IMG/VR virus record: IMGVR_UViG_3300029619_000014
Location: 1 to 42,979 of that record
Source of the DNA: a virus
DNA length: 42,979 nucleotides
Reading direction: 5' to 3' (one strand)
Shown: positions 1 through 30,993 of the stretch, piece after piece
How the letters are laid out: every line of letters starts with the position of its first letter
Numbering within the stretch: the stretch's first letter is position 1
Translations under genes and position numbers: made by a program
Notes under the pieces: model-generated
What the model saw: only the letters and a program-made list of their open reading frames with translations
What the model was told of the DNA's origin: nothing
Databases searched by the model: none

Positions 1-108
1 TCATGTCGTTCCACTTTTCCATGTAGCCCGCCGCGCGGTAGAACACGTTCGCCTGCCTTGCGATCTCGTTCTTTTCCTGCCGGGTCTCGGCGGCTTTGTA
101 CAGAGGCT
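1..108. repeat. Terminal direct repeat, identical to 42872-42979 (circular assembly overlap or terminal redundancy); unique genome length 42871 bp
   Basis: Both ends compared base by base (tcatgtcgttccacttttcc...ctttgtacagaggct): no mismatch over 108 nt. Confidence 0.95.
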
Positions 109-3100
109 TGAAGTATCTCGTGATCTGCGAGGATATGTCCCGCTTCTGCACGCCGTGGCTCAGATAGTATTGCACCGTCTCCTTCGCGTCCGTGTTCTGC
201 TCCATCGCGTCCGTCAGCTTGCCGTACTTGGAGTAGTCAGGTCCGCCCTTCCATTCCTCCAGCATCCAGTAGGTGTCGTCCTCGGATTCATTCAGATTCT
301 TGCTCAGAATGCGCGTTGCCAGCTTCTCGTCGATGCTGCCCGACTGGAATGCCTCTTTCACCTCCTCGATGACGCCCTTCTGTATCTCCTTCCGCGCGTC
401 GCTGTCCGAAAGCCCCTCCTGCTCCTTGAGCGCCTTGAGCTGCGACTTGTAGATCGGCTCGTACCCGTCCAGCTTCAGATCGCGTATCTTGCGATACATC
501 TGCGCGTAGTTTGCTTTGCTCGCCCGGTCGCGTTCCGCCCGCGCCTCCTTCGCCGCCTGCTCCTCTTCCGAAATGGCGGTCGCCTCCGCGTTGTTGATCG
601 CGCTCTGGACCTTCTCGTCCGCCAGCGCCTGATCTACGTCCATGTAGGCGTCCAACTGCTCGCGCTCGGTGTCGCTCGCGATCACGTTGTAGTAATACAG
701 CGCCTTTGCCTCGTCCGAAATGTCATAGTCCCGCAGCGCTTCGAGCTTTGCATCCTTCTTGCTTACGCCCTCCGGCACGTCCACGTCCTGCATCGCCTGA
801 ATGAGCTTCCACGCCTCGCGCTGCTTCACGTCTGCCGCGCTCATCGCGAGGTACGCGTTCGTCTCCTTCGTGCTGAGTTTCGAGAATCCGCTCTGTACCC
901 AATCGCGCGCCTCCTTCGTGGCGTTGCGTCCGAATACGCCTGCCTGCACGTCGCGCAGCACGGTCCACTTGCCCTCGTCGGTAAACACCGGGTACTGCAT
1001 CTGAAGCTCGCCCTTGTTGTTGCGGTAGAACTTTCCGCCCTTTGCCACAGCATAAATGCCCTGCGCCACCTTGCGTATCTGCCCGCCGCCGAACGGCAGC
1101 CCCAGATACAGCAGCGGGTCTCGGACCTCCTCCCACAGCTTCGCGTTCTTCGTCTCGCTGTCCAGCTCCTTATTGGTCGCCGCCTTCCAGATCGCAGACA
1201 CATCCGGCAGCGCCGAGGAAAACGGCACGCGTCCGCCGCCGAGCACCCCGCCTGCCAGCGGCAGCTCCTCGGCGGTGCTCGTCAGGAAATGCGTCACCGT
1301 GTTCCCAAAGCCCGCAGGCTTTCCCTCATGGATAAAGCCAGCCTCCGAGCCGAACGCCACGTCGAGGACGTTGTTGAGCTTGTAGCCCGTCGCGTCGCCC
1401 ACCAGCTCGTTTGTCATGTCGATCGGGTCAAGCGCCGCCCGTCTGCCCACGACCTTCTCGTAAAGCTCGTTGTATGCCCACGCCGAGAAGAACATCTTGA
1501 ACAGCGCCCACGCCAGCGCCTGCAAGCCCCGCTTGCGCATCTCGCGCGGCAGGTCCTTGAAGATGTTGGAGAACTGGTTGTTCACCTCCAACTGGAACTG
1601 TGTGAACAGCTTCGTAAACGGGTTTTTCGCCTGGAAGCGCGTCGGCGTCGCGCCCTTGCTTCTGTCCGCCATGATGTTTGCCGCAAAGCGGTCCGCCTCG
1701 CGCATCGCGTCCTCCTCCAGCATCCCGCGCCGGAGGTTTTGGTTGTACCGCGCCCGGACGATCGTGTCCGCCGTGAACGTGTCGATCCGCTCCATGGGCA
1801 TAGACAGCTTCGCACTCAGATTTCCCTGCCACGTCCGCACCAGCGGATCGCTGCCCCGGCGGTTCGTCAAAAACGCGCTGCGCTCCCAAAAGCCGTCGTC
1901 GTTCTTCATCGCCGCGAGCGCCTTACCCATCGCCTGCACCATATCGCCCGTGGAAATATAGCCATATGCCTGCGTCAGCGGAATAAAGTTCGTCAGCCAC
2001 GACCCCGGATTCATCGCCACCATGTTTGCCGCCGCGCGGCTCTCCAGCCAGTTCATCGCGTTGTAGAATTTGCGTCCCAGCACGCTCTCCACGCCCCGGT
2101 CAAGCTTGCTCTTCTTGTTCGCCAGCAGGTTTGTGTACTCATCCAGCCACGCCGCAAAGCCCGAAAGCTCAAACTTTGCGTTTTCGTATAGGTCTTTAAT
2201 GCGCAGCTCCTTGTCCTGCTCGCTGATGCTCTCATCCGCCCGGATCGCGTCCACCCGCTCGCGCACGCCCTCGTTCGATGTGCGGTATCTGACCTCCGAC
2301 GCAAATGCCCGCAGCCGCTGAATGTTGTCCGTCTGGAATACGATGTCCGCCGCGCCCTCGATGTACTTGTCAAAGCCCTCCACCGCGTCATACGCTGTGT
2401 TAAAGCCCAGGCGCTCCTTCGCGTTTCCAAACCACGTGATCCCCGGCTTAAAGGTGTGTGTCAGTCCGTTGATGGTCGTCGGCAGCGCCGTCACATCCGC
2501 TTTGATGCCCAGCGCCTTGCCCATCACCGCCAGCACGCCGTCCGTCTGCCCCGGCTGGAAGTGCGGAAAATATCCCCTGCGGTAGTCGATCGGCTCATAG
2601 CCGTTGCGCACGCGCACGTCGTTCATCTGCGTAAACAGCTCATCGTAGATCTTTCGGAACTCCCCAACGGCACGCTCGACCTTCTCTTTGCTGATACCGG
2701 GGTTCTTCTCCCACAGCTCGCGCACCACGGCTTCCCACTCGGCAAGCGTCTTGCCGTCCCGTTTCGCGTCCATTGGCTTCTTCGTGAGCTGCCGGATGTT
2801 GTCCATCGCCTCGCCGTAGAGCTGCACCGCGTGCGCCTCGCTCACCACGTCCCCGGCTTTGACCTTCCGGCTCAGATTCATTTTGCGCACGCGGGCGCGG
2901 TAGTCGTTCTTGAAGCGCGTGGACTTCGCCTGCTGCGTGTGTACCGGCTCAAAGATCGTCTCGTTGATCCTCTTCGCGTCCGCCGCCGGAAATACGTCCT
3001 CGATGTTCCGCTCCGCCGTCTCGCGGTCATACCGAAATCCCGGTGCAAGCCCCTTCTTGTCCTTCGCCTGCTCGGTGTTCTCCAGCAAAGGACGCACCTG

Positions 3101-6100
3101 CTCGCGGTAGCCCTCCTTCACGCCCCTGCGCCACCGGGCGATCTGCGCCGTGAGCGCGGCATAGTCCGCCTTTGCCTCGTACACGTTCAGAATGCTCCGC
3201 GCGTTCTTGCGGTCCTGAATGTCCTCCGGCGCAAGCTCTCCGCGCAGCAGCCGGTCCAGTATCCGCTCGTCCTCGTCCGTCAGCAGATTCTTGCTCTGCA
3301 CCCGCTCATAGGCGCGTCTGGCTTCCCTCTGCCGCTTGTAGAGTTCTTCTACCTCCGCCTGCGACTTCGGCGCTTCCTGCGCCAGCTTCGTCCGCTCGCG
3401 GCTCTCTGCCCACGCTCTGGCGGTGCGCAGCGAGGCTTTCATGTCCTCCACGGCAGCCTCAAAGTCATTCCTTGCCCACCGCTTATAGTCCCCGCCGTCG
3501 CCCTTGTGCGCCTCGTCCAGCGTCTGCTTCGTGATCTGGATCTTATCCGCCACCTCGATCATGCGCATGAGCTGATCCGCCGGGTTCATGATCGCCTCCG
3601 GGAACAGCCCCGGCGCTTCGTCGTGGAGTTCTCCGTACAGCGTGTCGATGCCGATGCCCTCGTTGTTGAGTAAGATCCTCCCGCGCACCGCCCGCCGGAA
3701 CTGCTCAAGGTCTGCGAACTCCGCCCGCACCTCCGGCGTCACTCGGATGCCCGTCTTGAGCAGCTTGACCTTGATATGCTTGAACGTGTCGTAGAACTCG
3801 CGGTCCTCCTCAATGCCGGCGTCGTAGGCGTCCTCAAAGCTCTTGTCGATCGTCTCCTGCGCGATCCTCCCGGTTTTCAGGAACTCGTTCATCATGCCCT
3901 GCACGGCAGGCTTCAGCACCTCGCGCTTTGCCTTGCCCGGAATGCTCATCGCGTTCGCCGCCTGCCGCACCGCGCTGTTCACCGCCTGATCCACAAACGC
4001 CCGCGCCTTCCCCGGCAGCTTGTCGTAGTCGTATGGCTGGAACGCTTCCTGCTCCGCCGCCTCTCTGGCAGCCTCTTCTTCCTCGCGGCGCTTCGCGTCC
4101 TCGCGGGCGGTCTCCTCCTCGCGCCGCAGCATTTCCTCCCGCGCCGCCGCCTGCTCCCGCTCATACGTCTGCGCATAGTCCCGCGCTTTGCGCATCTCCG
4201 GGAGCATTTCCTTCACGCCTGCCTTAAAGCTGTCCCATGCGTGTTCCTTGAACTCCGCCGTCTCCATCTTCTCGGACAGGACGGTTGCCTTCATGATCTG
4301 GCGGCTCACGGATGAAAGGCGCGTGATCTGCTCCCACGATTCCTTTGCCCACGACCCGAACAATTCAGGCGACATCTTGCGCACCTTTTCGTACATCCGG
4401 CTCACGTCATACAGCGGCTGCGCGCCCTTCGCAAAGTCCATCGCTTTCAAGTCTCGCAGTGACCGTGCGAGGACCTTTGCCTTTTCTGGCGTCGCGTTCT
4501 GTAGCTCCTGCTTCTGCTCGTCCGACAGCACGATCCGCCGCGACTTGATGACGTCCAGCACCTCGCTGTACCGTCGTGCAAACTCGTCGTTCATCTGCTT
4601 GGCTTCCCTGTAGGTCGTCTCGAATGCCTGCTCCACGGTGCTTTTCTGCACCTTGCCCGTCTCAATGTACTCGTCGATGATCTTGTTGATCTCAGGTCGG
4701 ACCTTTGTCTCCAAGTCCCAGCCCGCCGCGCTCATCGGATTCGTGAGTTTCTGGACGGTCTCATCCCGGACCTGCTTCATGTACTGCCTGCCGGTTCTTT
4801 GGAGATTCCGCAGTCGGTTTCGTTCCTCGTCGCTTTCCTCCAGCTCCCGCGCGATCTCTCTCTGCTGCTCCTCCTCACTCAGCACCGGCGCGTCCGCGTC
4901 CGTCAGCTCCGGCGCTCGCTCCTGCGTTTCTGGCGAATATTTCCTGTTGACATTTTTGCCCTCTGGTCGTAGACTATTTGTAAACGCAGAGTTGATGGTC
5001 GGAGCGACCTCTCCCGGAGCATTGGCAACTTCGGTGACGCCCCCGACGGACGTAAACTCTGCGTTTGCCTTATTTTCCAAGACAAGCAGCGTGCCGTCCG
5101 GCGCAAGCACTCTGTGCATTTTATAGAAATTCTTGCTGGTTTTTTTGACTACAACTGCCATATTCCCGCGGACGCCGTCAATTTCAATTGGTGCTGCAAT
5201 GGTCACTGTCGCATATCCGCGTCCCTTGTGATTCTCATGCCCGCTGATTTCAATTCCGCGCTTTAAAACACGAGCCAGTGCGGCATAAGCTCCCACCTCT
5301 GCGTCTCCCAGCTTCAAATAGTCCAGGCTGCTGTTCAAACGTTTTTCGTCAATTACGATCGTTCCAAATCCACTGCGTTCTACCTTGAAGCCGGTAGGAC
5401 GCAGTTTTTCTACGACCCACTGCCGCGTGCGGTTCATATCCCATTTTTCAATATCCGCTGGGCTTTGAATCGAGGCAACCGTTTCCATGTTCGCAAGCTC
5501 CTGCCTATGCTCTCGGATTTGTCCCTTTATGCTTTGACTTTCGACCATGTACTCCGCTGCGCTCATTTCGGCAAACACCGTATTCTCGTCCGCCATTTTC
5601 GGCATTGTCGCCCGCCTCTGCTCCGCCGTCATGTTCCGGCGTGCAGTTGCATCCCGCGCCTCGATCTCGCCCGCCGTGTTGTTGTACATTCTTCTGTACT
5701 CGCCCGGCGCATCAGTCATACGGCGATTCAGATCAAGCAGGCTTTGAAACCACTGCTTCGGATAAAGTTCTTCGTAAAGCGCATCCTGCTCTGCTTCGAG
5801 CTTTGTGTAGCGCCTTCCGTCCTCGCTGTTTTCGTCGGACAGGAAAAGTCTCTCCAGCTCTCTTTCCAGTTCGGTATAGCGTATATATTTGTTCTGCTTA
5901 TTCCTCGGTAGGCTGTTTAGGAGTTTATCGTATTCTCTTTGCAGCCGCTCCCCGACAAGATCGCCACTCTCAAATTCCCGCCGTGCCCAGTATTCCGGGC
6001 TTGCGCCGCCTGGGAAACCCTCAATGTCCTGTATGGCGTGTTGTATCTCGTGGATGAGCGTATTTTCCGGCGCGCTTCTCAGACTGCTGTCCAAAGTAAT

Positions 6101-9100
6101 CCTGTTTTCCTGCCTGTTATATACGCCTTGCTTCCCGGCGTCCAATTCTTTAAACCGCAGTTCAACGTTCCTCAGTCGTGGGTACACCTTGAACAGCTCG
6201 TCATGCTTTAGGAAGTCTCCCAGCCGCAGTCCGTCAGAAGTCTGTACACTGAACCTCCTTGCCCAATCAAGCGCCGCTACATAATCCGTGAACACATCGC
6301 CGTACTTTTCCGCGTTGCGCTCGTAAAGGCTGCGCATTTCCGCCTTGTCACCGCGAACCCTTGCAGAGTTGTACTTGCGCACGTCTTTCATTTCGTCGTC
6401 GCTCAGTGCCGCCGCCATATCAGCCTTTGCCGCGTCCAGATCTTCCAACGCCCATTTCCGGCTCGTTGCACCCTGTGCATCCCCGCTACTGTCATACTCT
6501 ATCCCGCTGTCGTCGATCTCGTATCGCCAGTCCTTGCCGTCCAGCGTCCGCGCTACGCCCAGCTCCATCCAAATCTCTTCCGGCGTTCTGCCCGCCGCCT
6601 CCATGCGCTCCGCTTCCGCTCGCACCTCGGCGTCCTTCAATTTTGCAAAGCTGTATCTCTCCGGCGGGCCTCTGGTCTGTGCCGGTTTTTTTGTGCGCTG
6701 GCTCGCGGTGCTGTCTGCGGCGGTGCGCACGGCATTCTGGAGCTTGTCCGCGCCCAAGCCCATGCGGTTGATCCCCGCGTAGGCGTCGCACACGATCTCG
6801 TCCAGATACGCGCTCAGGTCATCGCCTGTGTAGCAGCCCTCGTATGCCTCGCAGTATTTCCGTGCCAGCTTATCCCGCTGCTCCTGCGAAAGCCCCAGCG
6901 CGTCGATCAGGCGCTCCCGCAACCCCGATTCTGCTTCCAGCCGCAGGTGCATCGCCTCGTGCTCGGCGGTCTTGATAACGCCGTCCTTCGCGTCGATGGT
7001 GATCCATACGGTCGTTCCCTGTGTAACGCCCTGCACGCTCATCTCTCTGCCGCCTGCGGTCCTGATTCTGATCGACCCGCTCACAAGACGCACGTCGTCC
7101 GCGCCCGCATCGGTAAGGATTTGCTTCGCCTGCTTGAGTGCGGGATATTCCTGCACCATACCCTCCGGCACGCGGTAGAACATTTTCTGTTCCGAGCCGT
7201 TTTCGATCCCGTCCGCCTTTGGGCTTAACCGTTCCGCTTTCGCAGTGCCGAGGACACTTTGGATTCTAAGGCTTTCCTTGATGCCGAATCCGCCTGCGGA
7301 TTCTTTCTCTGCTCCTCCTGCGCCTCTGCCCACGCGTCCAGACGGCTCATCGGAATCCATACTTGCATCCCGTTCGCCGCCGTTACCAATACCCGCTGTT
7401 CCATTTTCTTCTCCTTTCCGCCTGCCTTCCTTGTAGGCTTCCTGCAATACCTCGTCCGCAATGCCCCTCTGAGAATCCTCACGCTTGAATTTCCAGCCGA
7501 ACCGTCCCTTCCCGTAGGCGACACGCACCGCCTCTGCATACGTCGGGATGTCCATCTGCACGCGGTCGTTTGCATCAAAATACCCGGAGATAAAGTATTG
7601 CGTCATCGCAAAGCCGTATTCGCGCTGCTTTGCGATCCGCTCCAGTTCCGCCGCGTCCTGCTCCTCTGCCGCTCTCCTTGCCGCAAGCTCGGCGGCGCTC
7701 TCCTGCGCCTGTGCGGACTGCTCTGTCTCGCGCAGCTCCTTGTCGGATAGGGTCTGCGTCTCGCGTCCCAACTCCTTCTGCTGCCGCTCGTTCTCCAGCC
7801 GCGCCCGCGCAACGTTCGCCACGTCCTGCATATCCCGCTCCTTCGCTTCCAGATATGCCTCGTCCTGCGCGAGCTGCTCCCGCAGCTCCCGTACCCGCGC
7901 ATTTATGGCTTCCCCTCGGGGGGAAGCTGTCGCCGTAGGCGACTGATGAGGGGAAGGCTCGTTATTTCTGACCTGCTGTGCGTTTGCTTCCAGCCCCCGC
8001 AGCTCCGCCGTCCGCGCATCGTACTGCTTTAGCCGCGCCTTATACTCGCGCAGCGTGTCCCCGACCTTGCCGAGCAGCTTGTCGCCCTTCACGCGCCCGC
8101 GTACATCCTCCTGCCCCGCCTGCCGTAAGACCGTCCGCACCTCCGGCTCGTTGTTTGCACGCTCCAAAGCCTCCCCTTGGTGACCAATGGGAGGTGGCGC
8201 GGAGCGCCGGAAGGGATCAGAACTACCCTCGTTCTGAGCTTCCGCCACGTCTGCCTCCAGCTCCATATTGTCCGGCAGCCCGTCCCCGTCCTCGTCGATC
8301 ACGTCCATATTGGACGGAATGTCGTCCTCCACGTCCATATTTTCCGGCACGTCACTCTCGCTTGCTTCCCGCTGTACCTCCTCCACGGTCCGCTCCGCCG
8401 CGTCGCTCTCTCCGGCTTTGTCCAGCGCGTCGATCAAGCGCCCGAAATCCTGCATATCCGGCGCGCGTCCGTATACCAGTTTGTCGCTGATCGTATCGCG
8501 CGCCGCCTGGACATCCGCGTTTGTGCTGCCGTCCGTCTCCCGGATCAGGATCTTCGCGTACTGCTTCATGTATCGGTCCTGCCGTGCCTGTGACAGCCCG
8601 CTCACCATCCCGGCAGCATCGCCCAGCACGCCGACGAATACGCCGCCGAGGAATGACAGCCCAAGGTCCTCCGCCGTCACTGACCCCTCCAGCGTCCCGT
8701 CCAGCACTAGGCTCTGGAACGTTGGCTCAAGCAGCTCCGCCACGACCTCCTCCAGACCCTCCGATACCAGCCCGAACGCCTTGCTGTCCAGCACCCGCAG
8801 GAGCGTCTTATTTTTCAGTTTCGCCGCCGCCCGGTTGATAAGACCCACGTCCTCGTCATACACCGGGTTTCCGCCGAACAGCTTTTCGGAGAATACTTCC
8901 ACGGCGGCGTTCTCCAAGCCGATCAAAATCGCCTCGCCGTCCGTCGCCCCTGCATTCTTCGCGTCCACCGCCGCGTTGCCGCCCGCTCTGGACGCCATGG
9001 ACGTCAGTGTGGATAGATTCGTCGTCTCTTTGATCGGATTCACGCCGCTCATCCCGGCAAGCCCCGCGTCCAAAAGCATCGACCCGACCGACGGCAGGTT

Positions 9101-10264
9101 CTCCACCACGAACTTCCCGACGTCGCTTCTGTCCTTCGTCGCCCGCTCCATAATGCGGCTGTACTCGTCCTGCCATGCCTGCGCGCCCGACCAGTCGATG
9201 TCTGTCGCCAGCTTGTCCGCCAGAGCGTTCAGGCTGTCCCGGTACGCCTGCCCGAAAATGCCGCCCAGCACCTTGCTCTTTGCAAGGTCACGCAGCGCCC
9301 ACGCCGCCGCCTTGTTGATTCCTGCTTCCGCGACCGCGTGCGTCGCCTCCTGACCGCCCAGCCACGACGCCGAGCTGCCGCTGATGAACGCATCCGCCGC
9401 CGCCTCGCCAAAGCCCACATAGTCCCCCGTGAGCTTTGGATTTTTCAGCAGTGCCCGGAAATCCGAAAGGTCCTTGCCGGTCACGCCCATCTCGTCGAAC
9501 CTCTGCCGCAGTGCGTCCTTTTCCTCCCGGTCCTCGTCAGCGTCCAGCTCAAAGTAGCGCGCCACGTCCTCCCGAATGCCCAGATTGTCCAGTCTGGCGT
9601 TCTGTGCCTGATAGCGCGTCTGCTCGTCTGTGGTGGTCGTTACGCCGTTCAGATAGTTTTGATACGTCCCGTATTTCTTCTGCATGGCAGTGGAGCGGTT
9701 GAACTCCTGCTCCGTTACCTTGCCTTCCCGCTGCGCCTGTTCCTGCTTCGCTCGGCGCGCATTTTCCATCGCCTCGTCGTACCCGGCGTACACGCCGCGC
9801 AAATAGTTCTGGTAGCTGCCGTATTTCTGCTGCATCGCCGTGGAGCGGTTAAATTCCTGTTCCGATACCTTGTCCGAGGAAAACCTGCCTCGCGGCGTTG
9901 CTTCCTGCTTCTGCCCCAGCTCTGCCCGGTACTGTTCCTCCGTCATCCCGCGCATCGCCCTGTACCGCTGCTGCGTGATGCTGTCCACCGCCGCCTTGTA
10001 CTGCTCAAACGTCACCCCGCCCTGCGCCTTGTACCGCTCCTGCGTCAGACTGTCCGAGCCTGCCTCCCCTTGGTGACCAAGGGGAGGTGGCGCGGAGCGC
10101 CGGAGGGGATCAGAACTATCCCCGCTCCGAGTTGTTGCCACATTCGCCGCCGGCGCGGCAGCCGCCCCGCTCTTGCGATAGCTGCCGCTCTGCTTATACT
10201 CCGTCCATTTGCCGGTCCTGCGCTCCTGCTCCTGCTGTTTTTTATACTCGCTCCATGCTCCCAT
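1..10264 (-). CDS. Giant virion-associated polyvalent protein: first 10264 nt of a 10290-nt ORF (3429 aa) that continues across the circular junction and stops at 42846-42848
   Basis: ATG at 10264-10262 preceded by GAAGGAGAA. Hand translation of the minus frame (codon first base = 1 mod 3) at several places gives clean protein (MGAWSEYKKQQEQERRTGKW..., GGVFVGVLGDAAGMVSGLSQAR, LIHEIQHAIQDIEGFPGG, ...YRAAGYMEKWND). The track lists no minus ORF in this frame between 1 and 10264, as expected if the frame is open to the window edge. The plus-strand ORFs here are L/R/V-rich antisense shadows. Confidence 0.85.
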   Translation of the reverse strand, partial: MGAWSEYKKQQEQERRTGKWTEYKQSGSYRKSGAAAAPAANVATTRSGDSSDPLRRSAPPPLGHQGEAGSDSLTQERYKAQGGVTFEQYKAAVDSITQQRYRAMRGMTEEQYRAELGQKQEATPRGRFSSDKVSEQEFNRSTAMQQKYGSYQNYLRGVYAGYDEAMENARRAKQEQAQREGKVTEQEFNRSTAMQKKYGTYQNYLNGVTTTTDEQTRYQAQNARLDNLGIREDVARYFELDADEDREEKDALRQRFDEMGVTGKDLSDFRALLKNPKLTGDYVGFGEAAADAFISGSSASWLGGQEATHAVAEAGINKAAAWALRDLAKSKVLGGIFGQAYRDSLNALADKLATDIDWSGAQAWQDEYSRIMERATKDRSDVGKFVVENLPSVGSMLLDAGLAGMSGVNPIKETTNLSTLTSMASRAGGNAAVDAKNAGATDGEAILIGLENAAVEVFSEKLFGGNPVYDEDVGLINRAAAKLKNKTLLRVLDSKAFGLVSEGLEEVVAELLEPTFQSLVLDGTLEGSVTAEDLGLSFLGGVFVGVLGDAAGMVSGLSQARQDRYMKQYAKILIRETDGSTNADVQAARDTISDKLVYGRAPDMQDFGRLIDALDKAGESDAAERTVEEVQREASESDVPENMDVEDDIPSNMDVIDEDGDGLPDNMELEADVAEAQNEGSSDPFRRSAPPPIGHQGEALERANNEPEVRTVLRQAGQEDVRGRVKGDKLLGKVGDTLREYKARLKQYDARTAELRGLEANAQQVRNNEPSPHQSPTATASPRGEAINARVRELREQLAQDEAYLEAKERDMQDVANVARARLENERQQKELGRETQTLSDKELRETEQSAQAQESAAELAARRAAEEQDAAELERIAKQREYGFAMTQYFISGYFDANDRVQMDIPTYAEAVRVAYGKGRFGWKFKREDSQRGIADEVLQEAYKEGRRKGEENGTAGIGNGGERDASMDSDEPSGRVGRGAGGAEKESAGGFGIKESLRIQSVLGTAKAERLSPKADGIENGSEQKMFYRVPEGMVQEYPALKQAKQILTDAGADDVRLVSGSIRIRTAGGREMSVQGVTQGTTVWITIDAKDGVIKTAEHEAMHLRLEAESGLRERLIDALGLSQEQRDKLARKYCEAYEGCYTGDDLSAYLDEIVCDAYAGINRMGLGADKLQNAVRTAADSTASQRTKKPAQTRGPPERYSFAKLKDAEVRAEAERMEAAGRTPEEIWMELGVARTLDGKDWRYEIDDSGIEYDSSGDAQGATSRKWALEDLDAAKADMAAALSDDEMKDVRKYNSARVRGDKAEMRSLYERNAEKYGDVFTDYVAALDWARRFSVQTSDGLRLGDFLKHDELFKVYPRLRNVELRFKELDAGKQGVYNRQENRITLDSSLRSAPENTLIHEIQHAIQDIEGFPGGASPEYWARREFESGDLVGERLQREYDKLLNSLPRNKQNKYIRYTELERELERLFLSDENSEDGRRYTKLEAEQDALYEELYPKQWFQSLLDLNRRMTDAPGEYRRMYNNTAGEIEARDATARRNMTAEQRRATMPKMADENTVFAEMSAAEYMVESQSIKGQIREHRQELANMETVASIQSPADIEKWDMNRTRQWVVEKLRPTGFKVERSGFGTIVIDEKRLNSSLDYLKLGDAEVGAYAALARVLKRGIEISGHENHKGRGYATVTIAAPIEIDGVRGNMAVVVKKTSKNFYKMHRVLAPDGTLLVLENKANAEFTSVGGVTEVANAPGEVAPTINSAFTNSLRPEGKNVNRKYSPETQERAPELTDADAPVLSEEEQQREIARELEESDEERNRLRNLQRTGRQYMKQVRDETVQKLTNPMSAAGWDLETKVRPEINKIIDEYIETGKVQKSTVEQAFETTYREAKQMNDEFARRYSEVLDVIKSRRIVLSDEQKQELQNATPEKAKVLARSLRDLKAMDFAKGAQPLYDVSRMYEKVRKMSPELFGSWAKESWEQITRLSSVSRQIMKATVLSEKMETAEFKEHAWDSFKAGVKEMLPEMRKARDYAQTYEREQAAAREEMLRREEETAREDAKRREEEEAAREAAEQEAFQPYDYDKLPGKARAFVDQAVNSAVRQAANAMSIPGKAKREVLKPAVQGMMNEFLKTGRIAQETIDKSFEDAYDAGIEEDREFYDTFKHIKVKLLKTGIRVTPEVRAEFADLEQFRRAVRGRILLNNEGIGIDTLYGELHDEAPGLFPEAIMNPADQLMRMIEVADKIQITKQTLDEAHKGDGGDYKRWARNDFEAAVEDMKASLRTARAWAESRERTKLAQEAPKSQAEVEELYKRQREARRAYERVQSKNLLTDEDERILDRLLRGELAPEDIQDRKNARSILNVYEAKADYAALTAQIARWRRGVKEGYREQVRPLLENTEQAKDKKGLAPGFRYDRETAERNIEDVFPAADAKRINETIFEPVHTQQAKSTRFKNDYRARVRKMNLSRKVKAGDVVSEAHAVQLYGEAMDNIRQLTKKPMDAKRDGKTLAEWEAVVRELWEKNPGISKEKVERAVGEFRKIYDELFTQMNDVRVRNGYEPIDYRRGYFPHFQPGQTDGVLAVMGKALGIKADVTALPTTINGLTHTFKPGITWFGNAKERLGFNTAYDAVEGFDKYIEGAADIVFQTDNIQRLRAFASEVRYRTSNEGVRERVDAIRADESISEQDKELRIKDLYENAKFELSGFAAWLDEYTNLLANKKSKLDRGVESVLGRKFYNAMNWLESRAAANMVAMNPGSWLTNFIPLTQAYGYISTGDMVQAMGKALAAMKNDDGFWERSAFLTNRRGSDPLVRTWQGNLSAKLSMPMERIDTFTADTIVRARYNQNLRRGMLEEDAMREADRFAANIMADRSKGATPTRFQAKNPFTKLFTQFQLEVNNQFSNIFKDLPREMRKRGLQALAWALFKMFFSAWAYNELYEKVVGRRAALDPIDMTNELVGDATGYKLNNVLDVAFGSEAGFIHEGKPAGFGNTVTHFLTSTAEELPLAGGVLGGGRVPFSSALPDVSAIWKAATNKELDSETKNAKLWEEVRDPLLYLGLPFGGGQIRKVAQGIYAVAKGGKFYRNNKGELQMQYPVFTDEGKWTVLRDVQAGVFGRNATKEARDWVQSGFSKLSTKETNAYLAMSAADVKQREAWKLIQAMQDVDVPEGVSKKDAKLEALRDYDISDEAKALYYYNVIASDTEREQLDAYMDVDQALADEKVQSAINNAEATAISEEEQAAKEARAERDRASKANYAQMYRKIRDLKLDGYEPIYKSQLKALKEQEGLSDSDARKEIQKGVIEEVKEAFQSGSIDEKLATRILSKNLNESEDDTYWMLEEWKGGPDYSKYGKLTDAMEQNTDAKETVQYYLSHGVQKRDISSQITRYFKPLYKAAETRQEKNEIARQANVFYRAAGYMEKWNDM
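7909..7970 (+). repeat. Two-hairpin element, copy D (inside giant ORF, in frame)
   Basis: CTTCCCC-TCGG-GGGGAAG (7909-7926), GTCGCC-GTA-GGCGAC (7929-7943), tail TGATGAGGGGAAGGCTCGTTATTTCTG; read on the minus strand as QVRNNEPSPHQSPTATASPRGEAIN. Confidence 0.85.
8170..8236 (+). repeat. Two-hairpin element, copy A (inside giant ORF, in frame)
   Basis: CCTCCCCTTGG-TGA-CCAATGGGAGG, GGCGC-GGA-GCGCC (8196-8208), tail GGAAGGGATCAGAACTACCCTCGTTCTG; encodes AQNEGSSDPFRRSAPPPIGHQGEALE. Confidence 0.85.
10063..10123 (+). repeat. Two-hairpin element, copy B (inside giant ORF, in frame)
   Basis: CCTCCCCTTGG-TGA-CCAAGGGGAGG, GGCGC-GGA-GCGCC (10089-10101), third hairpin GGGGAT-CAGAACT-ATCCCC; encodes SGDSSDPLRRSAPPPLGHQGEAGS. 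Confidence 0.85.
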
Positions 10265-10277
10265 GCTCTTCTCCTTC

Positions 10278-11363: not shown

Positions 11364-11535
11364 CCGCTTCTTCCTCCTTTTCCGCTTCCTCCCGCAGCTC
11401 CCGCTCCATTGCCTGTAAGACCTGCCCGCGCACCTCGCGCAGCGCCGCGTCCGCCATCACCGGCGGCAGCTCCGCCCGGTTGATCGCTTCCACGATCTGA
11501 TTTTTCAGTTCAAAATACCGTCTCGTCGTATTCAT
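11344..11535 (-). CDS. Small hypothetical protein (63 aa, coiled/acidic)
   Basis: ORF translationally coupled to its neighbours (overlaps both). Confidence 0.5.
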   Translation of the reverse strand: MNTTRRYFELKNQIVEAINRAELPPVMADAALREVRGQVLQAMERELREEAEKEEEADGHLQS

Positions 11536-12995
11536 GTTGTCCCCTCCAATGCCGCAATTCTGGTTTTCAGTTTCTGTATCTGGTCGATGCAGAGCGCGAT
11601 AAATTCGCCGTACCGCAAAAAATAGCTGTAGCCGCCCTCGTCCTTCGCCGCCTTGCAGATGCCCGCGAACTCCTGCCCCGTCAGCCCTACGGCGGTCATC
11701 GCTTCCTCCACGTCCTGCGCGATCATCCCGACGTGTACGCGCCCGCTCGTTCCGGCGTTCAGCTTGTAGTGCGCCGGCTTCAATCGGTCAAACAGCGCCG
11801 CATACCGCTCCATGTCGTAGCTGATGCTGTTTTTCTCATTCAGGTCGGATGTCTGGATCACGTCGTCTACCGCCCACACGCTGTTCCATAGACGCTTTCC
11901 CGTTCCCAATCTCACATCTCCGCTTGAGCTTGGTCCAAAGTAGAGCACGCTCACTTGCGTTGAATCACCCTCGATTGAAACGTCTCTCGTTTCCCGCAAT
12001 TCCACGCCGCAATCTGTTGTGTATATCCGCGCGCTCGTTGGGGTGATTCGCATTCCTCCGCTCTCTGCATCCGCGCTTCCCTGTGCGAGAAACAGCACTC
12101 GACCGTTCGAAACGCTGACCATGGATTCGTTTGGCGAGCGCAAACTGATCTGCTTATTCGTTTCGCCGTCATACGTTTCCACATACACGCCCAAATACCC
12201 CACCAGCGTCTCCACACTGGACGCCTCATAGACCGGCAGATTGCCGCGCAGCTTGAACTTCTCCAGATACAGACCGCTGATCTCCGCGTTTTCCGAAATG
12301 GTCAGCTTCGTCGCTGTGATCTCGCCGCTGATCTTCGCGCCCCACGCCTCCAGCGTCCCGGACGGAAAATGCAGCACCTTGTCCGTTAGCCACGCCACCG
12401 GCACGCCCTGCTGCCAGAATTTGATCTCCCCCGGCGTCACGGTCACGACCTCTCCGGCGGACGTGTTGATGACCTCATTCCCGCTCTGGACCGTCGTGGA
12501 GATATTGCCCACGCCCACGCCGTAGCGCGGCGTCACGCCGTCGTAGTATAAAAGCCCGGTCTTGACGTACTGCTGGCTCTTCCCGGTATACTGGTTGTTG
12601 ATCCCGTCCGTATAGTCAAAGAGCTGTGTGATGCCCTCGCTGTTCGCCGTGAGGGTCAGGCTCGTTTGCTTTACATACTCGCCGAAGGTGGACTTCGCAA
12701 CAAACCCGCCCTTGAGCGTCTTGGAAAACTGCTCGGAGTTCTCCATCGAAAAGTCCGCCGTCTTGATGATGAGCTGCTTGAGCGATTCAAACCCCGTCAG
12801 CTTTTTCTCTTTTGCCGTCCGCAGCGCCGCGTCCTCATCGATGCCCTGCGCGATCTCCTGCAAGACCGCCTCCGCCGACCAATCCGACAGATTCAGCCAG
12901 TCGATGATCTCGCACTGCGACCTATACAGCGCGCTGATCTGCTCCTGCGCCGTGCCGCCCATCCGCTTCGGATACGCTAAATTCAGGCTTCCCAT
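11532..12995 (-). CDS. Tail fibre/spike with C-terminal intramolecular chaperone (peptidase S74-type) autoprocessing domain
   Basis: C-terminus ...VIQTSDLNEKNSISYDMERY...GRVHVGMIAQDVEEAM...FLRYGEFIALCIDQIQKLKTRIAALEG matches the S74 chaperone pattern (S-D-x3-K). The ATG at 12995 overlaps the upstream TGA (the track starts at GTG 12998). Confidence 0.85.
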   Translation of the reverse strand: MGSLNLAYPKRMGGTAQEQISALYRSQCEIIDWLNLSDWSAEAVLQEIAQGIDEDAALRTAKEKKLTGFESLKQLIIKTADFSMENSEQFSKTLKGGFVAKSTFGEYVKQTSLTLTANSEGITQLFDYTDGINNQYTGKSQQYVKTGLLYYDGVTPRYGVGVGNISTTVQSGNEVINTSAGEVVTVTPGEIKFWQQGVPVAWLTDKVLHFPSGTLEAWGAKISGEITATKLTISENAEISGLYLEKFKLRGNLPVYEASSVETLVGYLGVYVETYDGETNKQISLRSPNESMVSVSNGRVLFLAQGSADAESGGMRITPTSARIYTTDCGVELRETRDVSIEGDSTQVSVLYFGPSSSGDVRLGTGKRLWNSVWAVDDVIQTSDLNEKNSISYDMERYAALFDRLKPAHYKLNAGTSGRVHVGMIAQDVEEAMTAVGLTGQEFAGICKAAKDEGGYSYFLRYGEFIALCIDQIQKLKTRIAALEGTT

Positions 12996-14785
12996 CACAC
13001 ATCACTCCCCGCCTCCAGCACGCGCGACAGCGAAAGCAGCCGGAAGTCCCCCGTGCCGGATATTTTGAATTGCAGGTGGTCGCACCGCCGCGGGCGGATC
13101 GGAAGCAGGAACGACCGAATGCCCCGCCCCTCCATGTGCCCGCAGTGCCGCCACTGCTTGTCAGAATTATACTGCACCCAAAAATCGCACCGCGACCCCC
13201 GCGGAAGCTGCATCCGCAGATTCAGCCGCGAGATGTATTTCTTGCCCACCAAGCCGTAGGTCATGATGCCGGTCTCCGCCCACCACGAAACAGGCGCTTC
13301 CGGCGTACCCTCCTGCCCCATCAGGTCCAGAACCGTCACGCTCCCGCTCTGATCCTTCGCCGCGTAGAGCGTATCCCTGCCGCTCGTGAGCGCTGTGAGC
13401 GCTTCTGCGCCGCTTTCCGCGTGCCATAGCCCCCGCATCGTGTCGTACACAAAAAGCCGCTGTGCGCCGTCCGGCTCGCTCATGGCGATGTAATACTTGC
13501 CCCGTGCGGTCGCCGCCATTGCGTTTTTGTAGAGGATGCCGCCCAACGCGTCCGAAATTCTGCTCGGAGCGCCCCCGTCGTAGCGGTACACGCCCAGCCG
13601 CGACTTGTAGTACAAAACGTTATCGACCACGCACAGGCTCTTGCCCGACCCGTCCTGCACGCCTTCGCAGGTGAGCTGCACCACCTGATGCGCGCCCTTG
13701 CTGGACGGATACACCCTGTGGATAAAGTCCTCCTTGAAAAACATTGGGCTGTCGTTATACGTCGCCGCGCCCGTCCACTTCCCGTCCGTGCCGACGCTCG
13801 CCCGGTACGAATCGGTCGAAATGCCCATGTAGCACTCCCAATTGCGGAAGTCTCCCAGCTTGCAGCAGTAAATTTCGTTCAGCATATCGCCGTCCTGCCC
13901 CACGCCGTAATAGCAGCCCCAAAGCCGGTTGCCGCACTCCGTCACATAGTCCAGCTCCGGCAGGCGGCGGTTCGTGATAATTTCCCCGCTCGTCTGCTCT
14001 GCTGTGGTATCCAGAATGCCGGTGATGATGATGTAGTCGTCCGCCGCGCCGTATAAAACGTGCGACCCGTTCAGCGCCTTTGCCTGCTCCGTCCCTGTGA
14101 TGCCGCTCAAAATGATCCCGTCGTACTGCTTCATGCCCACGCCGATGCCGCCGAGCGATAATTTCACATACGTCGTCGCCACCTGCACCCACTGTGCCGA
14201 GCTTGCCGACCACTGCTTGAGCGCGTGCGGCTCAGAGCCTGTGTCCACCCAATACATCCCGTTCGTGCGGTCTGTCGGCTCTGTGTCCGTCGCCGAGGCT
14301 GTGATGCCCGCCCCATCCGGCGTGCAGAGCGTGATCGTCAGCTTCGCCGCGCTCGTCGGCGTCACGGTGTTCTTGCGCGCCATATACCCGGCGTCCGTGG
14401 GTTTCAGCGTGTTGTAGTAAATGCCGTCGGGGAATATGCAGAGGTAAGCGCCCATGCTCACGAGCTGCTTTTCCCCCGCCGTGAGCGTCACGCCCTGCGG
14501 CAGCTCCTGCAAAATGCCCCCGCAGTAAAGCCCCGGCAGCGTTGCTCCCTGCCACACATACCACAGCACGCCGTCCCGCGCCGTCCAGCCCAGGAGCGTC
14601 CCTTCGCCCAGCGCCTTCAGCGTGCTCCGCCGCATACGCGGCGCAAGCATCGGGAAGTAGTCTCCCGTTAAATTCTCAAGGTCGTAAAACGCCCCGTCCT
14701 GTATCTGGAGGTTGTGGTCGTAGCCGTAAAAGACCTCCGTCACCGCCTGCTCCTTGGCAGGCGTATTTTTCTGCACGAATAGCAT
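12995..14785 (-). CDS. Large tail/adaptor-associated structural protein (596 aa, beta-rich, propeller-like repeats)
   Basis: ORF with GAGGTGAGAAG RBS, positioned in the structural module; function not recognisable by eye. Confidence 0.8.
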   Translation of the reverse strand: MLFVQKNTPAKEQAVTEVFYGYDHNLQIQDGAFYDLENLTGDYFPMLAPRMRRSTLKALGEGTLLGWTARDGVLWYVWQGATLPGLYCGGILQELPQGVTLTAGEKQLVSMGAYLCIFPDGIYYNTLKPTDAGYMARKNTVTPTSAAKLTITLCTPDGAGITASATDTEPTDRTNGMYWVDTGSEPHALKQWSASSAQWVQVATTYVKLSLGGIGVGMKQYDGIILSGITGTEQAKALNGSHVLYGAADDYIIITGILDTTAEQTSGEIITNRRLPELDYVTECGNRLWGCYYGVGQDGDMLNEIYCCKLGDFRNWECYMGISTDSYRASVGTDGKWTGAATYNDSPMFFKEDFIHRVYPSSKGAHQVVQLTCEGVQDGSGKSLCVVDNVLYYKSRLGVYRYDGGAPSRISDALGGILYKNAMAATARGKYYIAMSEPDGAQRLFVYDTMRGLWHAESGAEALTALTSGRDTLYAAKDQSGSVTVLDLMGQEGTPEAPVSWWAETGIMTYGLVGKKYISRLNLRMQLPRGSRCDFWVQYNSDKQWRHCGHMEGRGIRSFLLPIRPRRCDHLQFKISGTGDFRLLSLSRVLEAGSDV

Positions 14786-18119: not shown

Positions 18120-18121
18120 GC

Positions 18122-30061: not shown

Positions 30062-30066
30062 TCATC

Positions 30067-30198: not shown

Positions 30199-30272
30199 TT
30201 CTTTCACCTCGCTTGTTTCGTTCCCCGCTTTGTGCTATTCTGTAAATATCAATCTCGAAAGGAGTTTCCCCC

Positions 30273-30809: not shown

Positions 30810-30993
30810 CCTCTCCTCACCCCCTCGTTTACCTTTCGTAGCTCAGAACTTTTTTGTTATTCATTTCATTCCCTGTGCATACGTTATCATGTCCTATGTA
30901 TTTTGTCAAGCACATTTTTATGCCTACGGAATATTTTTTATTGACTTTTTCCGTCTTGCGTGGTAACGTAGTGCCAGAAAGGTGGTGATCCCG

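Follow-up and report, generated by a model that had tools for sequence, protein, structure and literature searches.

The giant gene and its neighbourhood

The window analysed here, the whole 42,979-nucleotide stretch of the viral record IMGVR_UViG_3300029619_000014, assembles as a circle whose ends overlap by 108 bp: the last positions, 42872-42979, repeat 1-108 exactly, so that the unique circle measures 42871 bp. Its minus strand carries an exceptionally long gene, which runs from an ATG at 10264-10262 down to position 1 (aa 1-3421) and, as 42872-42979 duplicates 1-108, continues across the junction for its last 26 nt at 42846-42871 (aa 3422-3429 and a TGA at 42846-42848, reading TCA on the plus strand). 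The frame comprises 10290 nt and 3429 aa, or 24.0% of the genome, with no internal stops. The initial annotation had claimed a genuine frame of this length, missed by the ORF list on account of the junction, and this explanation holds, since the frame runs off the window end. The ribosome-binding site claimed for it can likewise be read from the sequence as a Shine-Dalgarno-like GAAGGAGAA (10269-10277, minus strand), 4 nt upstream of the ATG and starting directly behind the stop codon of the preceding gene. Database searches recovered 447 matching proteins at E<=1e-5, and the best 120 of these are every one 2580-3376 aa long and encoded on contigs of mostly ~40-42 kb. A phmmer search with aa 2380-3200 recovered 2666 representatives of 50%-identity clusters (E<=1e-3), nearly all of 2000-3900 aa. 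As the proteins in both sets are nearly all similarly long, the single long frame is conserved, and to a degree which, judged by these comparisons, far exceeds chance.

The late genes are arranged in the order terS, terL, portal, Prp-like peptidase, scaffold-like protein, major capsid protein, phrog_511 protein, tail fibre (with a C-terminal tail-fibre/spike domain), a 361-aa protein and the giant gene, which is followed across the junction by four further genes (42795 down to 39726), one of them fibre-like with weak matches to tail-fibre families. The prophage carrying P0051 shows an identical gene order. The giant gene had been described as following the tail and fibre genes; it does lie among the tail genes, but not at their end, as four late genes succeed it. 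It shares the strand of the late structural operon, with tight spacing and a strong ribosome-binding site. The portal is P22/SU10-like, and no tail tube, sheath, tape measure, chaperone-frameshift pair or baseplate families are recognisable among the genes of the window, in agreement with what had been noted at first for the tube, sheath and a separate tape measure. The presence of an integrase and a repressor points to a temperate phage. On the whole, this is a temperate, short-tailed phage (P22/SU10-portal type) infecting gut Firmicutes, with a probably Gram-positive host that is probably a member of the Oscillospiraceae/Ruminococcaceae group.

Conserved blocks and exchanged modules

The giant protein can be divided into seven parts, namely an N-terminal repeat region, a hydrophobic block, an HExxH block, a cassette, a duplicated helical domain, an all-α core and a C-terminal tail. 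A coverage map of the best 120 of the 447 relatives yielded the module boundaries which the initial annotation had proposed to seek by such comparison, with swap positions separating three conserved stretches, namely the hydrophobic block A, block B with its HExxH motif and a D2-plus-core region of ~1100 aa. Pfam has no model for about 85% of the chain, the 1100-aa C-terminal region included. Confidence in the AlphaFold2 (AF2) models is low overall (mean pLDDT 60-61), and a PDB fold search with both models gave no match at E<0.5, solved ejectosome proteins included. All features described below lie on the minus strand.

The N-terminal variable region (aa 1-290; 9395-10264), delineated by the coverage map and its repeats, belongs to no Pfam family and contains a protein-level repeat, EQEFNRSTAMQ.KYG.YQNYL, at 9642-9722 and 9792-9872. 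It is followed by the Gly/Ala-rich block A (aa 290-640; 8345-9397), with many invariant residues and a hydropathy peak formed by a strongly hydrophobic 19-mer (aa 536-554); it has no family match in profile searches and is essentially unmodelled by AF2 (pLDDT about 30). The hydrophobic stretches pointed out earlier are genuine, being retained in 92 of the 120 relatives and replaced by a different module in the others. An acidic, coiled-coil-like linker (aa 641-879; 7628-8344), apparent from the coverage map and AF2, leads to block B (aa 880-1205; 6650-7627), which is universally conserved (119/120). In this block H1102, E1103 and H1106 (HEAMH, 6947-6961) are invariant, and E1139, E1156 and D1160 are conserved downstream. 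AF2 models it with a pLDDT of mostly 85-95 over aa ~870-1190, save for a low-confidence stretch at aa ~957-992, and places a β-sheet ahead of the HExxH-bearing helix. HMM and Foldseek searches with the block returned no match; judged by its invariant HExxH, the acidic residues behind it and the succession of secondary structure elements in the model, it is probably a zincin-like metallopeptidase.

The variable cassette that follows (aa 1206-1800; 4865-6649) is covered in only ~10 of the 120 relatives. It contains an LPD23 domain (aa 1210-1255; 6500-6637; E=2.6e-9, 37.2 bits against a Pfam gathering cut-off of 27), a second HExxH domain (HEIQH at aa 1405-1409; 6038-6052) with a weak DUF6782/SprT-like metallopeptidase match, and a weakly matched Pfam LPD3 domain (aa 1614-1711; 5132-5425). 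Its GC3 is 0.617, as against 0.71-0.87 elsewhere in the gene, and its best relatives are stand-alone LPD23-DUF6782-LPD3 proteins of 550-1000 aa from prophage late regions. Relatives more than 90% identical in the flanks carry Pfam-verified ART-PolyVal, PBECR3, PBECR5, MuF_C (~33 of the 120 closest) or LPD3 domains at this position, and the insert between block B and the core ranges from 255 to 900 aa with the flanks above 90% identity throughout. In nr, one of the relatives bears the name "PolyVal ADP-Ribosyltransferase [Caudoviricetes sp.]". These sequence patterns indicate that the relatives swap modules between conserved blocks, the alternatives being an ADP-ribosyltransferase, PBECR RNases, MuF_C or the LPD23-metallopeptidase-LPD3 set. 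The comparison with polyvalent proteins made at the outset is borne out by the LPD23 match above the cut-off and by the domains seen in these relatives.

Beyond the cassette lies D1 (aa 1828-2038; 4151-4783), an additional, diverged copy of D2, the first domain of the core (profile comparison with hhalign: probability 98.6%, E=4.9e-16, 21% identity). The helical D2 (aa 2090-2293; 3386-3997) opens the universally conserved C-terminal region and, like the succeeding all-α core (aa 2294-3200; 665-3385), is present in all 120 relatives. The core is modelled by AF2 as wholly helical (pLDDT 60) and has no Pfam match and no fold match in the PDB; in BFVD it has 33 fold matches (E<1e-3), all of them to later, never N-terminal, chunks of giant viral proteins, many of which are annotated as polyvalent. 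The C-terminal tail (aa 3201-3421 at 1-664, continuing at 42846-42871) is covered by only 42-62 of the 120 relatives, and alternative tail lengths of 170, 222, 239 and 271 aa occur.

At two module junctions of the gene the sequence is an in-frame copy of a 56-nt repeat with two hairpins. The first copy (aa 50-68, SSDPLRRSAPPPLGHQGEA; 10062-10117) comprises the hairpin GGCGC-TCC-GCGCC and a perfect 11-bp hairpin, CCTCCCCTTGG-TCA-CCAAGGGGAGG; the second (aa 681-699; 8169-8224) differs from it at 3 of 56 nt. Within the acidic linker, at ~7905-7950, lies another two-hairpin linker of a second type, SPHQSPTATASPRGEA. A third, diverged copy of the hairpin repeat is found outside the giant gene (29680-29760, with hairpin 2 at 29697-29721), in another reading frame, in a C-terminal extension of the ORF at 29624-30061, whose PHROG match stops at aa 90, upstream of the hairpin element. 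In the three loci that extend across both ends of the cassette (L005, L006 and L002) nucleotide homology stops at gene nt 3614-3615 and restarts in the core region at nt 6237 (aa 2080); in the L005 comparison a breakpoint falls inside the second repeat copy. Copies of the 56-nt repeat in bacterial contigs are mostly intergenic and show compensatory changes in one stem. The in-frame repeats at two to three junctions plausibly provide portable homology for module recombination.

Probable role and alternatives

Sequence comparisons identify the giant protein as a phage-type large polyvalent protein, the product of one late gene, with modules that appear to be reshuffled by recombination among related phages. 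The best overall explanation, to which we assign a probability of roughly 0.6, is a polyvalent protein that is packaged in the capsid, ejected, equipped with an effector cassette and diversified by such recombination. Packaging and ejection, as proposed for gp47 of phage phi24B, is by this analogy the most likely role, although neither a MuF domain nor any other domain known to target portal or capsid is detectable in the protein. A few copies would be packaged inside the capsid and, upon infection, expelled via the short tail, ahead of the DNA or along with it. Packaging, ejection and envelope crossing would be the task of the all-helical C-terminal core and possibly also of the hydrophobic block near the N-terminus; as the host is probably Gram-positive, the trans-periplasmic channel model of T7 and P22 is not directly transferable. 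Within the first minutes, the central cassette would act in the cytoplasm of the host, either countering its defences or aiding takeover, and the invariant HExxH domain might cleave the polyprotein into working pieces or strike a host target. Related phages would exchange modules by recombination, with the hairpin repeats at the junctions supplying homology.

The strongest competitor, though distinctly improbable beside this, is that the chain is translated whole and its products act independently, either because a polyprotein is cleaved ahead of assembly or in its course, only some fragments entering the virion, or through internal starts. Two HExxH domains within one chain, the conserved junction linkers and the processing of P1 DdrB before packaging (Iyer et al., PMC5512222) favour this; however, N4 vRNAP, ArdC and TraC1 are transferred unprocessed despite their metallopeptidase domains (PMC5512222), and no promoter or terminator signals above chance were found inside the giant gene. 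It is, moreover, largely compatible with ejection of a polyvalent protein rather than opposed to it.

Slightly less probable still is that the protein sits on the outside of the particle as part of the tail, be it a central fibre, tail tip or wall-penetrating protein, and that its modules act on the cell surface, as might be expected from the position between tail-fibre-like genes and the requirement of Gram-positive podoviruses for a wall-penetrating device. Against it, zincins with an HExxH motif are proteases rather than typical muramidases or peptidases of the LAS family, and the protein is predicted to be almost all helical, with no β-helix, collagen-like or receptor-binding fold in the models. 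The authors of the phi24B study speculate that the gp47 metallopeptidase digests peptidoglycan, but gp47 is not visible on the particle surface (bioRxiv 10.64898/2026.04.10.717836), and the ADP-ribosyltransferase and BECR-type RNases of the relatives have cytoplasmic targets (PMC5512222).

We consider it unlikely that the protein is a non-virion, polymorphic-toxin-like effector expressed from the prophage or at lysis and merely encoded near tail genes, as its swappable toxin-like modules and a similar 8-kb ORF of Clostridium clostridioforme prophages filed under accessory genes (PMC11318856) might suggest. The late-operon strand, the tight spacing and the strong ribosome-binding site right behind the preceding stop speak against this, and conservation of the 1100-aa core over 2666 clusters speaks for an essential function in the structure. 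Nor does a secretion signal or an immunity gene stand out.

The initial annotation also raised a tape-measure role, which would call for a long-tailed phage with tube genes diverged beyond recognition; this is very improbable despite the Gly/Ala-rich stretches in the N-terminal third and the very long gene in a tail module: the portal is of the P22/SU10 type, too few genes for a long tail lie between capsid and fibre (only four between the capsid gene and the giant gene, one a fibre), and no tube, sheath, chaperone-frameshift or baseplate families were found. At ~1.5 Angstrom of tail length per residue, 3429 aa would imply a tail of about 500 nm, and to our knowledge tape measures carry no swappable ART or RNase cassettes. 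An N4-like virion RNA polymerase, likewise raised earlier, is even less probable, for while the size (about 3400-3500 aa) and podovirus-like context are similar and N4 gp50 (~3500 aa) also carries an HExxH domain (PMC5512222), no polymerase domain was detected by Pfam, PHROGs, NCBIfam, PDB sequence search or Foldseek, this temperate phage with its integrase and repressor is unlike schitoviruses, and tblastn with aa 423-3421 against a phage collection recovered only three records, none a schitovirus.

Comparison with known systems

Phage polyvalent proteins were predicted to be capsid-packaged, injected and autoprocessed through the metallopeptidase domains that they contain (Iyer, Burroughs, Anand, de Souza & Aravind 2017, J Bacteriol; PMC5512222), and, like the giant protein, combine unrelated modules in a very long chain encoded among virion genes (PMC5512222). 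LPD23, LPD3 and HExxH metallopeptidase-like domains are shared with them, as are ART-PolyVal, PBECR and MuF_C in the relatives; however, the present family does not mix domains freely but exchanges them at set positions within a fixed, conserved framework, and is defined by its 1100-aa C-terminal region without a Pfam model. Gp47 of Escherichia phage phi24B, an Stx2 podovirus, is reported as a 2811-aa protein (2807 aa as translated from HM208303) with LPD5, LPD1, LPD38 and MuF-C domains, and is proposed to be an encapsidated ejection protein, being found in virions by proteomics and invisible by cryo-EM (bioRxiv 10.64898/2026.04.10.717836). It resembles the giant protein in its size, its polyvalent make-up and its coding position with the tail genes of a temperate podovirus, but differs in its LPD set and Gram-negative host, and no block shows BLAST or profile similarity to it.

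The ejection proteins of podoviruses (T7 gp14/15/16, P22 gp7/16/20 and N4 gp50-52) are stored in the capsid, expelled via the short tail and largely α-helical, a mode of action proposed here as well. The giant protein has no sequence or fold match to solved ejectosome components; it is one giant chain rather than three proteins, has interchangeable effector modules and contains neither a transglycosylase nor a polymerase. MuF-type polymorphic toxins of temperate phages, reportedly described by Jamet et al. in 2017 as head-associated carriers with variable C-terminal toxin modules, share MuF_C with about 33 of the 120 closest relatives. The giant protein is three to five times larger, has no detectable MuF N-terminal domain and bears its variable module internally.

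Prophages phi1 and phi4 of C. clostridioforme LM41 have 8-kb ORFs similar to LPD3 of "Podoviridae sp." (PMC11318856); as single ORFs of ~20% of the genome in prophages of gut Clostridia, these resemble the giant gene by their description, and they are listed only as hypothetical (PMC11318856). The repeats recall Rickettsia palindromic elements and REP or SPRITE-type terminator-like repeats (review PMC10969869) in being short, hairpin-forming and mostly intergenic, yet able to sit in-frame within genes and be translated into a conserved peptide. They differ in measuring only about 56-100 nt, in residing in phage virion genes and, within the giant gene, in occurring at module junctions in direct orientation and the same frame. 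Giant polyvalent proteins as such are known already; the unexpected part is that the modules are joined by hairpin repeats also found between bacterial genes.

The reading frame and its gene neighbourhood

The sequence is a circular assembly in which bases 1-108 recur at 42872-42979, leaving a unique genome of 42871 bp. A minus-strand frame opens at an ATG at 10264, runs to position 1 without a stop codon and ends 26 nt further on, at a TGA at 42846-42848, giving an ORF of 10290 nt (3429 aa) that takes up 24% of the genome; it is missing from the ORF listing because it runs off the end of the window. The start codon is preceded at a distance of 4 nt by GAAGGAGAA, directly past the stop codon of the preceding gene. 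By our own reading of the sequence, the coordinates, length and start signal in the initial annotation are all correct. At E<=1e-5 the giant protein matches 447 database proteins, the best 120 of which are all 2580-3376 aa long and come mostly from contigs of about 40-42 kb; with matches of this number and length, the frame is no chance opening in GC-rich DNA. A division of the gene by internal promoters or terminators was set aside, since such signals occur within it at chance level. Searched with megablast, 50,697 phage records contained no match to the region, and tblastn against phage records returned only one unannotated faecal contig and two short matches to the region of the second HExxH motif.

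A scan of 33 ORFs of the window with PHROGs identifies the virus as a temperate phage, with an integrase (33844-34998, plus strand), a repressor-like regulator (33234-33815, plus) and, at the head of one long minus-strand operon, a replication initiator and a methyltransferase. On the minus strand lie terS (21513-22004) with terL next to it, the portal gene (18122-20047), a small Prp-like ORF (17805-18125) that sits where a relative has a Peptidase_Prp gene, and downstream of it the genes for a scaffold-like protein (16754-17605) and the major capsid protein (15452-16732). Between the capsid and fibre genes are a 125-aa protein and then a 596-aa phrog_511 protein, and these are followed by a 488-aa protein (11532-12998) whose C-terminal 150 aa match tail fibre/spike families (E=3e-23) and by a 361-aa protein that separates it from the giant gene. 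Four more minus-strand genes follow past the giant gene and across the junction, from 42795 down to 39726, so that the gene lies within the tail module and not, as first described, after it. One of the four, a fibre-like gene at 41473-42414 (minus), has weak PHROG tail/tail-fibre matches (best E=5e-11), and collagen-like GxP/GDxG repeats were seen by eye in its translation; the two fibre-like genes, 11532-12998 and 41473-42414, thus stand one on each side of the giant gene.

PHROGs detected no family for a tail tube, sheath, tape measure, chaperone pair or baseplate in the 33 ORFs, in agreement with the earlier remark that no tail tube, sheath or tape measure is recognisable; this makes a short-tailed particle the most likely. 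The gene encoding one homologue (P0051) belongs to a prophage that adjoins smpB in a 114-kb contig and has the gene order of the window; the portal of this prophage has matches to P22_portal and SU10_portal. In a relative (L002, 26155-27174) the prophage adjoins smpB and a peptidyl-prolyl isomerase gene, a position that suggests integration near the tmRNA locus. The window carries no tRNA or tmRNA gene. Its segment at 30000-40000 has a GC content of 0.52-0.55 versus about 0.61 and carries plus-strand genes including those for the integrase and the repressor-like regulator; ORFs of 647, 202, 202 and 251 aa in this segment have no PHROG match, and it is possibly an accessory or moron region. A host scan of genome contigs gave one match, a 4.4-kb MAG contig of an 'uncultured Firmicutes bacterium', which does not pin down the host.

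The scaffold-like and major capsid proteins both start with ...LNIQLLAD..., which we take to resemble the Prp cleavage motif of the capsid and scaffold proteins of staphylococcal phage 80alpha. By analogy, this shared start suggests N-terminal processing of the two proteins. The common motif LNIQLLA was sought in the giant protein and is absent from it.

Fixed blocks and exchangeable modules

Segment borders within the giant protein were drawn from BLAST coverage by 120 relatives, anchor mapping and a 28-sequence alignment. The N-terminal region (aa 1-290) is variable and has many repeats. It is followed by block A (aa 290-640), a Gly/Ala-rich, hydrophobic segment with a strongly hydrophobic 19-mer at aa 536, which is present in 92 of the 120 relatives; the others have a different N-terminal module in its place, with PBECR3 in both of those checked with Pfam (P0018 and P0048). 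An AF2 model of aa 280-1210 leaves block A unmodelled (pLDDT ~30). An acidic, coiled-coil-like linker (aa 640-880) leads to block B (aa 880-1205), found in 119/120 relatives, and to a cassette (aa 1206-1800) that only about 10/120 cover. Beyond it lie D1 (aa 1828-2038; 4151-4783, minus), a diverged duplicate of D2 (21% identity; hhalign probability 98.6%, E=5e-16), and D2 itself (aa 2090-2293; 3386-3997, minus), with which the conserved region opens. A single copy of this pair is apparently all that many relatives have. D2 and the core together (aa 2090-3200) are densely invariant and present in all 120 relatives, and the C-terminal tail (aa 3200-3429) is variable, with alternative lengths.

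About 85% of the protein is without a Pfam model. Pfam recognises only LPD23 at aa 1210-1255 (E=2.6e-9; 37.2 bits versus a curated cut-off of 27), a DUF6782/SprT-like metallopeptidase match, weak and below the cut-off, around the second of two HExxH motifs (HEIQH, aa 1405), and an LPD3 match at aa 1614-1711 that is under the threshold. NCBIfam gave no matches to the whole protein searched in four pieces, and PHROGs only two families of unknown function, each over a short stretch. The relatives hold other modules: Pfam scans found PBECR3, MuF_C and ART-PolyVal in P0048, LPD3 and PBECR5 in P0078, and PBECR3, LPD23 and LPD3 in P0018, and a hand count of precomputed Pfam annotation among the 120 best homologues gave ART-PolyVal in about 30, MuF_C in about 33 and PBECR3 in about 12. 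One relative is named 'PolyVal ADP-Ribosyltransferase' in nr. LPDs, ART-PolyVal, PBECR and polyvalent-type metallopeptidases are hallmarks of the large polyvalent proteins (Iyer et al. 2017, PMC5512222), a class that combines at least two disparate activity domains, including class-specific ones, and is encoded next to virion genes in phages with portal-terminase packaging. The giant protein has such a combination, and its gene has such a setting, with terS, terL, portal, capsid and fibre genes upstream on the same strand and late genes downstream, as in the prophage relative. The likening to phage polyvalent proteins in the initial annotation is thus upheld by LPD23 above its cut-off and by relatives with ART-PolyVal, PBECR3/5 and MuF_C. 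The giant gene is a further member of this already described kind, from a very large, uncharacterised and mostly gut-derived family.

The insert between block B and the core ranges from 255 to 900 aa across relatives and is longest in the window. Nucleotide homology to three related loci stops at nt 3614-3615 of the gene and resumes at nt 6237 in each case, and relatives more than 90% identical in the flanks hold other modules at the same position. The cassette (4865-6649, minus) has a GC3 of 0.617 versus 0.71-0.87 in all other segments of the gene, consistent with recent acquisition from a source of lower GC. With the cassette alone as query, the best relatives align over 95-98% of its length at 43-48% identity; they are free-standing proteins, 550-1000 aa long, that keep the order LPD23-DUF6782-LPD3, some with ART-PolyVal or MuF_C in addition. 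Several are named from Oscillospiraceae or Ruminococcaceae MAGs, and one is encoded at the end of a prophage late-gene cluster. By these comparisons, the cassette is a swapped-in unit.

A phmmer search with aa 2380-3200 of the core against 1.84 billion cluster representatives (50% identity) recovered 2666 proteins at E<=1e-3, of which 1634 also pass E<=1e-30; among the matches listed nearly all are 2000-3900 aa long, and the 2666 clusters are mostly of gut-metagenome origin. Some carriers (P0177, P0179, P0211, P0213, P0223 and P0248) are only 970-1430 aa long and start near D2; such short forms could be either free-standing cores, comparable in size to T7 gp16, or genes called too short. The AF2 model of the core, built from 55 sequences, is all-helical with a mean pLDDT of 60, the first ~490 residues being mostly at 70-90. 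Foldseek with this model found nothing significant in the PDB and 33 matches at E<1e-3 in BFVD, all of them to giant viral proteins and always to one of their later chunks, never the N-terminal one. Annotation with polyvalent domains (PolyVal ART, LPD3, LPD38, MuF_C, nuclease, methylase) is frequent among the matched proteins, and examples come from Ralstonia phage Alix and from a Flavobacterium podovirus (a 'structural protein'). Since the BFVD matches are giant and often polyvalent-annotated, the core looks to be a framework common to phage polyvalent proteins and not yet described as a domain; no domain or structure database holds a description of the 1100-aa helical region formed by D2 and the core.

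Residues H1102, E1103 and H1106 of block B never vary in the 28-sequence alignment, and E1139, E1156 and D1160 are conserved there. The AF2 model of aa 280-1210 places most of aa ~870-1190, including the HExxH domain, at pLDDT 85-95 and predicts a β-sheet (pLDDT ~90), then the HExxH helix, then helices with the conserved acidic residues. This order agrees with the zincin core as described by Iyer et al. (PMC5512222), namely a β-sheet, the HExxH helix and a following helix with a conserved Glu. Pfam, PDB-profile and Foldseek searches gave no match to block B, the Foldseek run being dominated by the long helices of the multi-domain model, which masked the well-modelled HExxH domain and made that model ill-suited to the search. 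By its motif, conservation and predicted topology, block B is a putative peptidase.

A two-hairpin repeat at the module junctions

The most surprising element of the giant gene is a repeat of about 56-100 nt at its module junctions. The peptide SSDP[LF]RRSAPPP[LI]GHQGEA occurs twice in the giant protein, at aa 50 and aa 681, and the 56-nt stretches that encode it (copy 1, 10062-10117; copy 2, 8169-8224; both minus) are identical at all but 3 positions; the EQEFNRSTAMQ protein repeat next to them, by contrast, shows many synonymous-site differences. Each stretch comprises a perfect 11-bp hairpin, CCTCCCCTTGG-TCA-CCAAGGGGAGG, with a 5-bp hairpin, GGCGC-TCC-GCGCC, before it. The peptide is found one to three times each in 42 of 268 homologues at recurrent positions, namely near aa 53, in the gap between the N-terminal module and block B, and 47 aa before the core, the last spacing being kept in every relative in which both positions were compared. 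The homology breakpoint between the window and the related locus L006 coincides with the 3' edge of copy 1, and one breakpoint with L005 falls within copy 2; others lie up to ~120 nt from a repeat.

Exact matches to the 25-nt hairpin were sought in metagenome contigs and found in 62 stretches; in all, 69 distinct copies were collected across 70 sequences, 61 of them with full flanks. Most are intergenic in bacterial metagenome contigs, outside long open frames. Five of nine adjoining bacterial ORFs tested match housekeeping families (Na:Ala symporter, peptidase M3, ATP synthase gamma/beta, acyl-CoA synthetase-type, and a weak match to a PLP-dependent enzyme), and four have no Pfam match. The consensus that these copies have in common is longer and stops sharply on its 3' side, where a T-run frequently comes next. 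The first hairpin occurs in 24 sequence variants, 19 of which form perfect stems of 5-8 bp, nearly all with a 3-nt loop, and five of which keep only 2-4 bp; the stems include CACGGC/GCCGTG, CAGGCC/GGCCTG, GGCGC/GCGCC, GGCAC/GTGCC, GGTAC/GTACC and GGTATGC/GCATACC. RNAalifold recovered only the invariant hairpin, because gaps in the alignment split the first one, and the stems were tabulated directly instead. Judged from these variants, the first hairpin shows compensatory covariation that alters the encoded peptide. With many dispersed copies and a structure backed by compensatory changes, the element resembles REP/MITE-like palindromic repeats in these respects; Rfam searches of the window and seven repeat-bearing loci found no family for it.

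The repeat also lies in-frame in further phage genes: near the N-terminus of a P22-like portal (L007 7175-9244, minus), in a 91-aa ORF just upstream of a giant-gene neighbourhood (L002 8619-8894) and in a 253-aa ORF (L008 6979-7740, minus). A third, diverged copy in the window, at ~29680-29760 (minus), falls within the C-terminal extension of an ORF (29624-30061), where its translation uses a different frame; its outer hairpin pair is altered on both sides. Three tandem copies with 279-nt spacing were seen in a 55.8-kb metagenome contig (L018 8236-8818). A second, related two-hairpin linker, SPHQSPTATASPRGEA (SPHQS..TASPRGEA), lies at ~7905-7950 (minus; aa ~770), with hairpins GTCGCC-TAC-GGCGAC and GCTTCCCC-CCGA-GGGGAAGC; relatives' giant proteins contain it as well, in their N-terminal regions, and it is found at L005 5149-5168 and L007 441-598.

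A peptide signal, that is a cleavage or capsid-targeting site, is disfavoured as the role of the repeat, because most copies are non-coding, one copy in the window is in another frame, and the first hairpin covaries in ways that change the peptide. The repeat is primarily a nucleic-acid element. Its copies in the giant gene are in-frame and in direct orientation, and it is also scattered between genes of the presumed host bacteria. It is conceivable, if rather unlikely, that such repeats act as portable, frame-preserving recombination sites at which co-infecting phages and prophages exchange, delete or duplicate modules; the alternative is that they merely tolerate translation within disordered linkers. 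Clean empty sites were absent from the N-terminal comparison, in which whole segments differ. If the repeats did act as recombination sites, cassettes would be exchanged at the level of protein domains and the repeat would be the device that makes the gene modular. The closest known phenomena are the palindromic elements inserted in-frame in Rickettsia genes and terminator-like repeats such as SPRITE (PMC10969869). The junction repeats offer a testable lead on the assembly of mosaic genes and may help to tie phages to their hosts.

Proposed action and precedents

The giant gene is one conserved frame in a virion-gene context, with polyvalent domains and fixed blocks interspersed with swappable modules. 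A phage is believed to deliver its giant polyvalent protein into the cell before any other, yet to our knowledge almost none of these proteins has been studied so far. By analogy, we favour, at a probability of roughly 60%, that the protein is packaged in the capsid and ejected at infection. It would be stored in the capsid and leave through the short tail; the helical core, and possibly block A, would serve packaging, exit and envelope crossing; the cassette would work in the host cytoplasm, and the HExxH domain may cut either its own chain or a host protein.

Other identities were considered. Kinship with ejectosome proteins (T7 gp15/16, P22 gp7/16/20, N4 gp51/52) was not borne out, as PDB sequence and profile searches and Foldseek with two models gave nothing below E=0.5, a weak negative given the low-confidence models; PDB searches with the protein and with the 28-sequence profile returned nothing but low-complexity matches, to designed PPR proteins and to apolipoprotein A-I. 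A MuF/SPP1 gp7-type head protein with toxin modules is not supported: MuF_C occurs only in relatives, and the N-terminal MuF domain (Phage_Mu_F) has no match in the window protein at E<=10. The tape-measure function proposed at first fares no better, since PHROGs found no tube, frameshift chaperone pair, distal tail or baseplate families among the 33 ORFs and the portal is P22/SU10-like in the prophage relative. An N4-type virion RNA polymerase (gp50 family) is dismissed, as Pfam, PHROGs, NCBIfam, PDB sequence and Foldseek searches matched no polymerase family or structure and no single-subunit T7-like polymerase domain. What stands of the first interpretation is a polyvalent and, by analogy, probably internal-virion, injected protein.

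Since near-identical phages differ in the module at the same position, the fixed and variable parts can be separated, and such phages with different effector modules constitute a natural experiment. Should packaging and injection be confirmed, the family would amount to an inventory of the early-acting effectors that gut Clostridia phages turn against their hosts.

Similar 8-kb ORFs, occupying ~20% of the genome, were noted without analysis in prophages of Clostridium clostridioforme (PMC11318856). The best precedent for a packaged and ejected giant polyvalent protein is gp47 of podovirus phi24B (2811 aa in the preprint; 2807 aa in the GenBank record). Proteomics showed it to be abundant in virions, cryo-EM maps did not reveal it, and the proposal is that it is an ejection protein held inside the capsid (bioRxiv 10.64898/2026.04.10.717836). 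It has no BLAST or profile similarity to any block of the giant protein, and the resemblance is therefore one of kind and not of ancestry. If packaging and injection hold, the family would supply a second case of one giant protein being injected by a temperate podovirus, after gp47 of phi24B.
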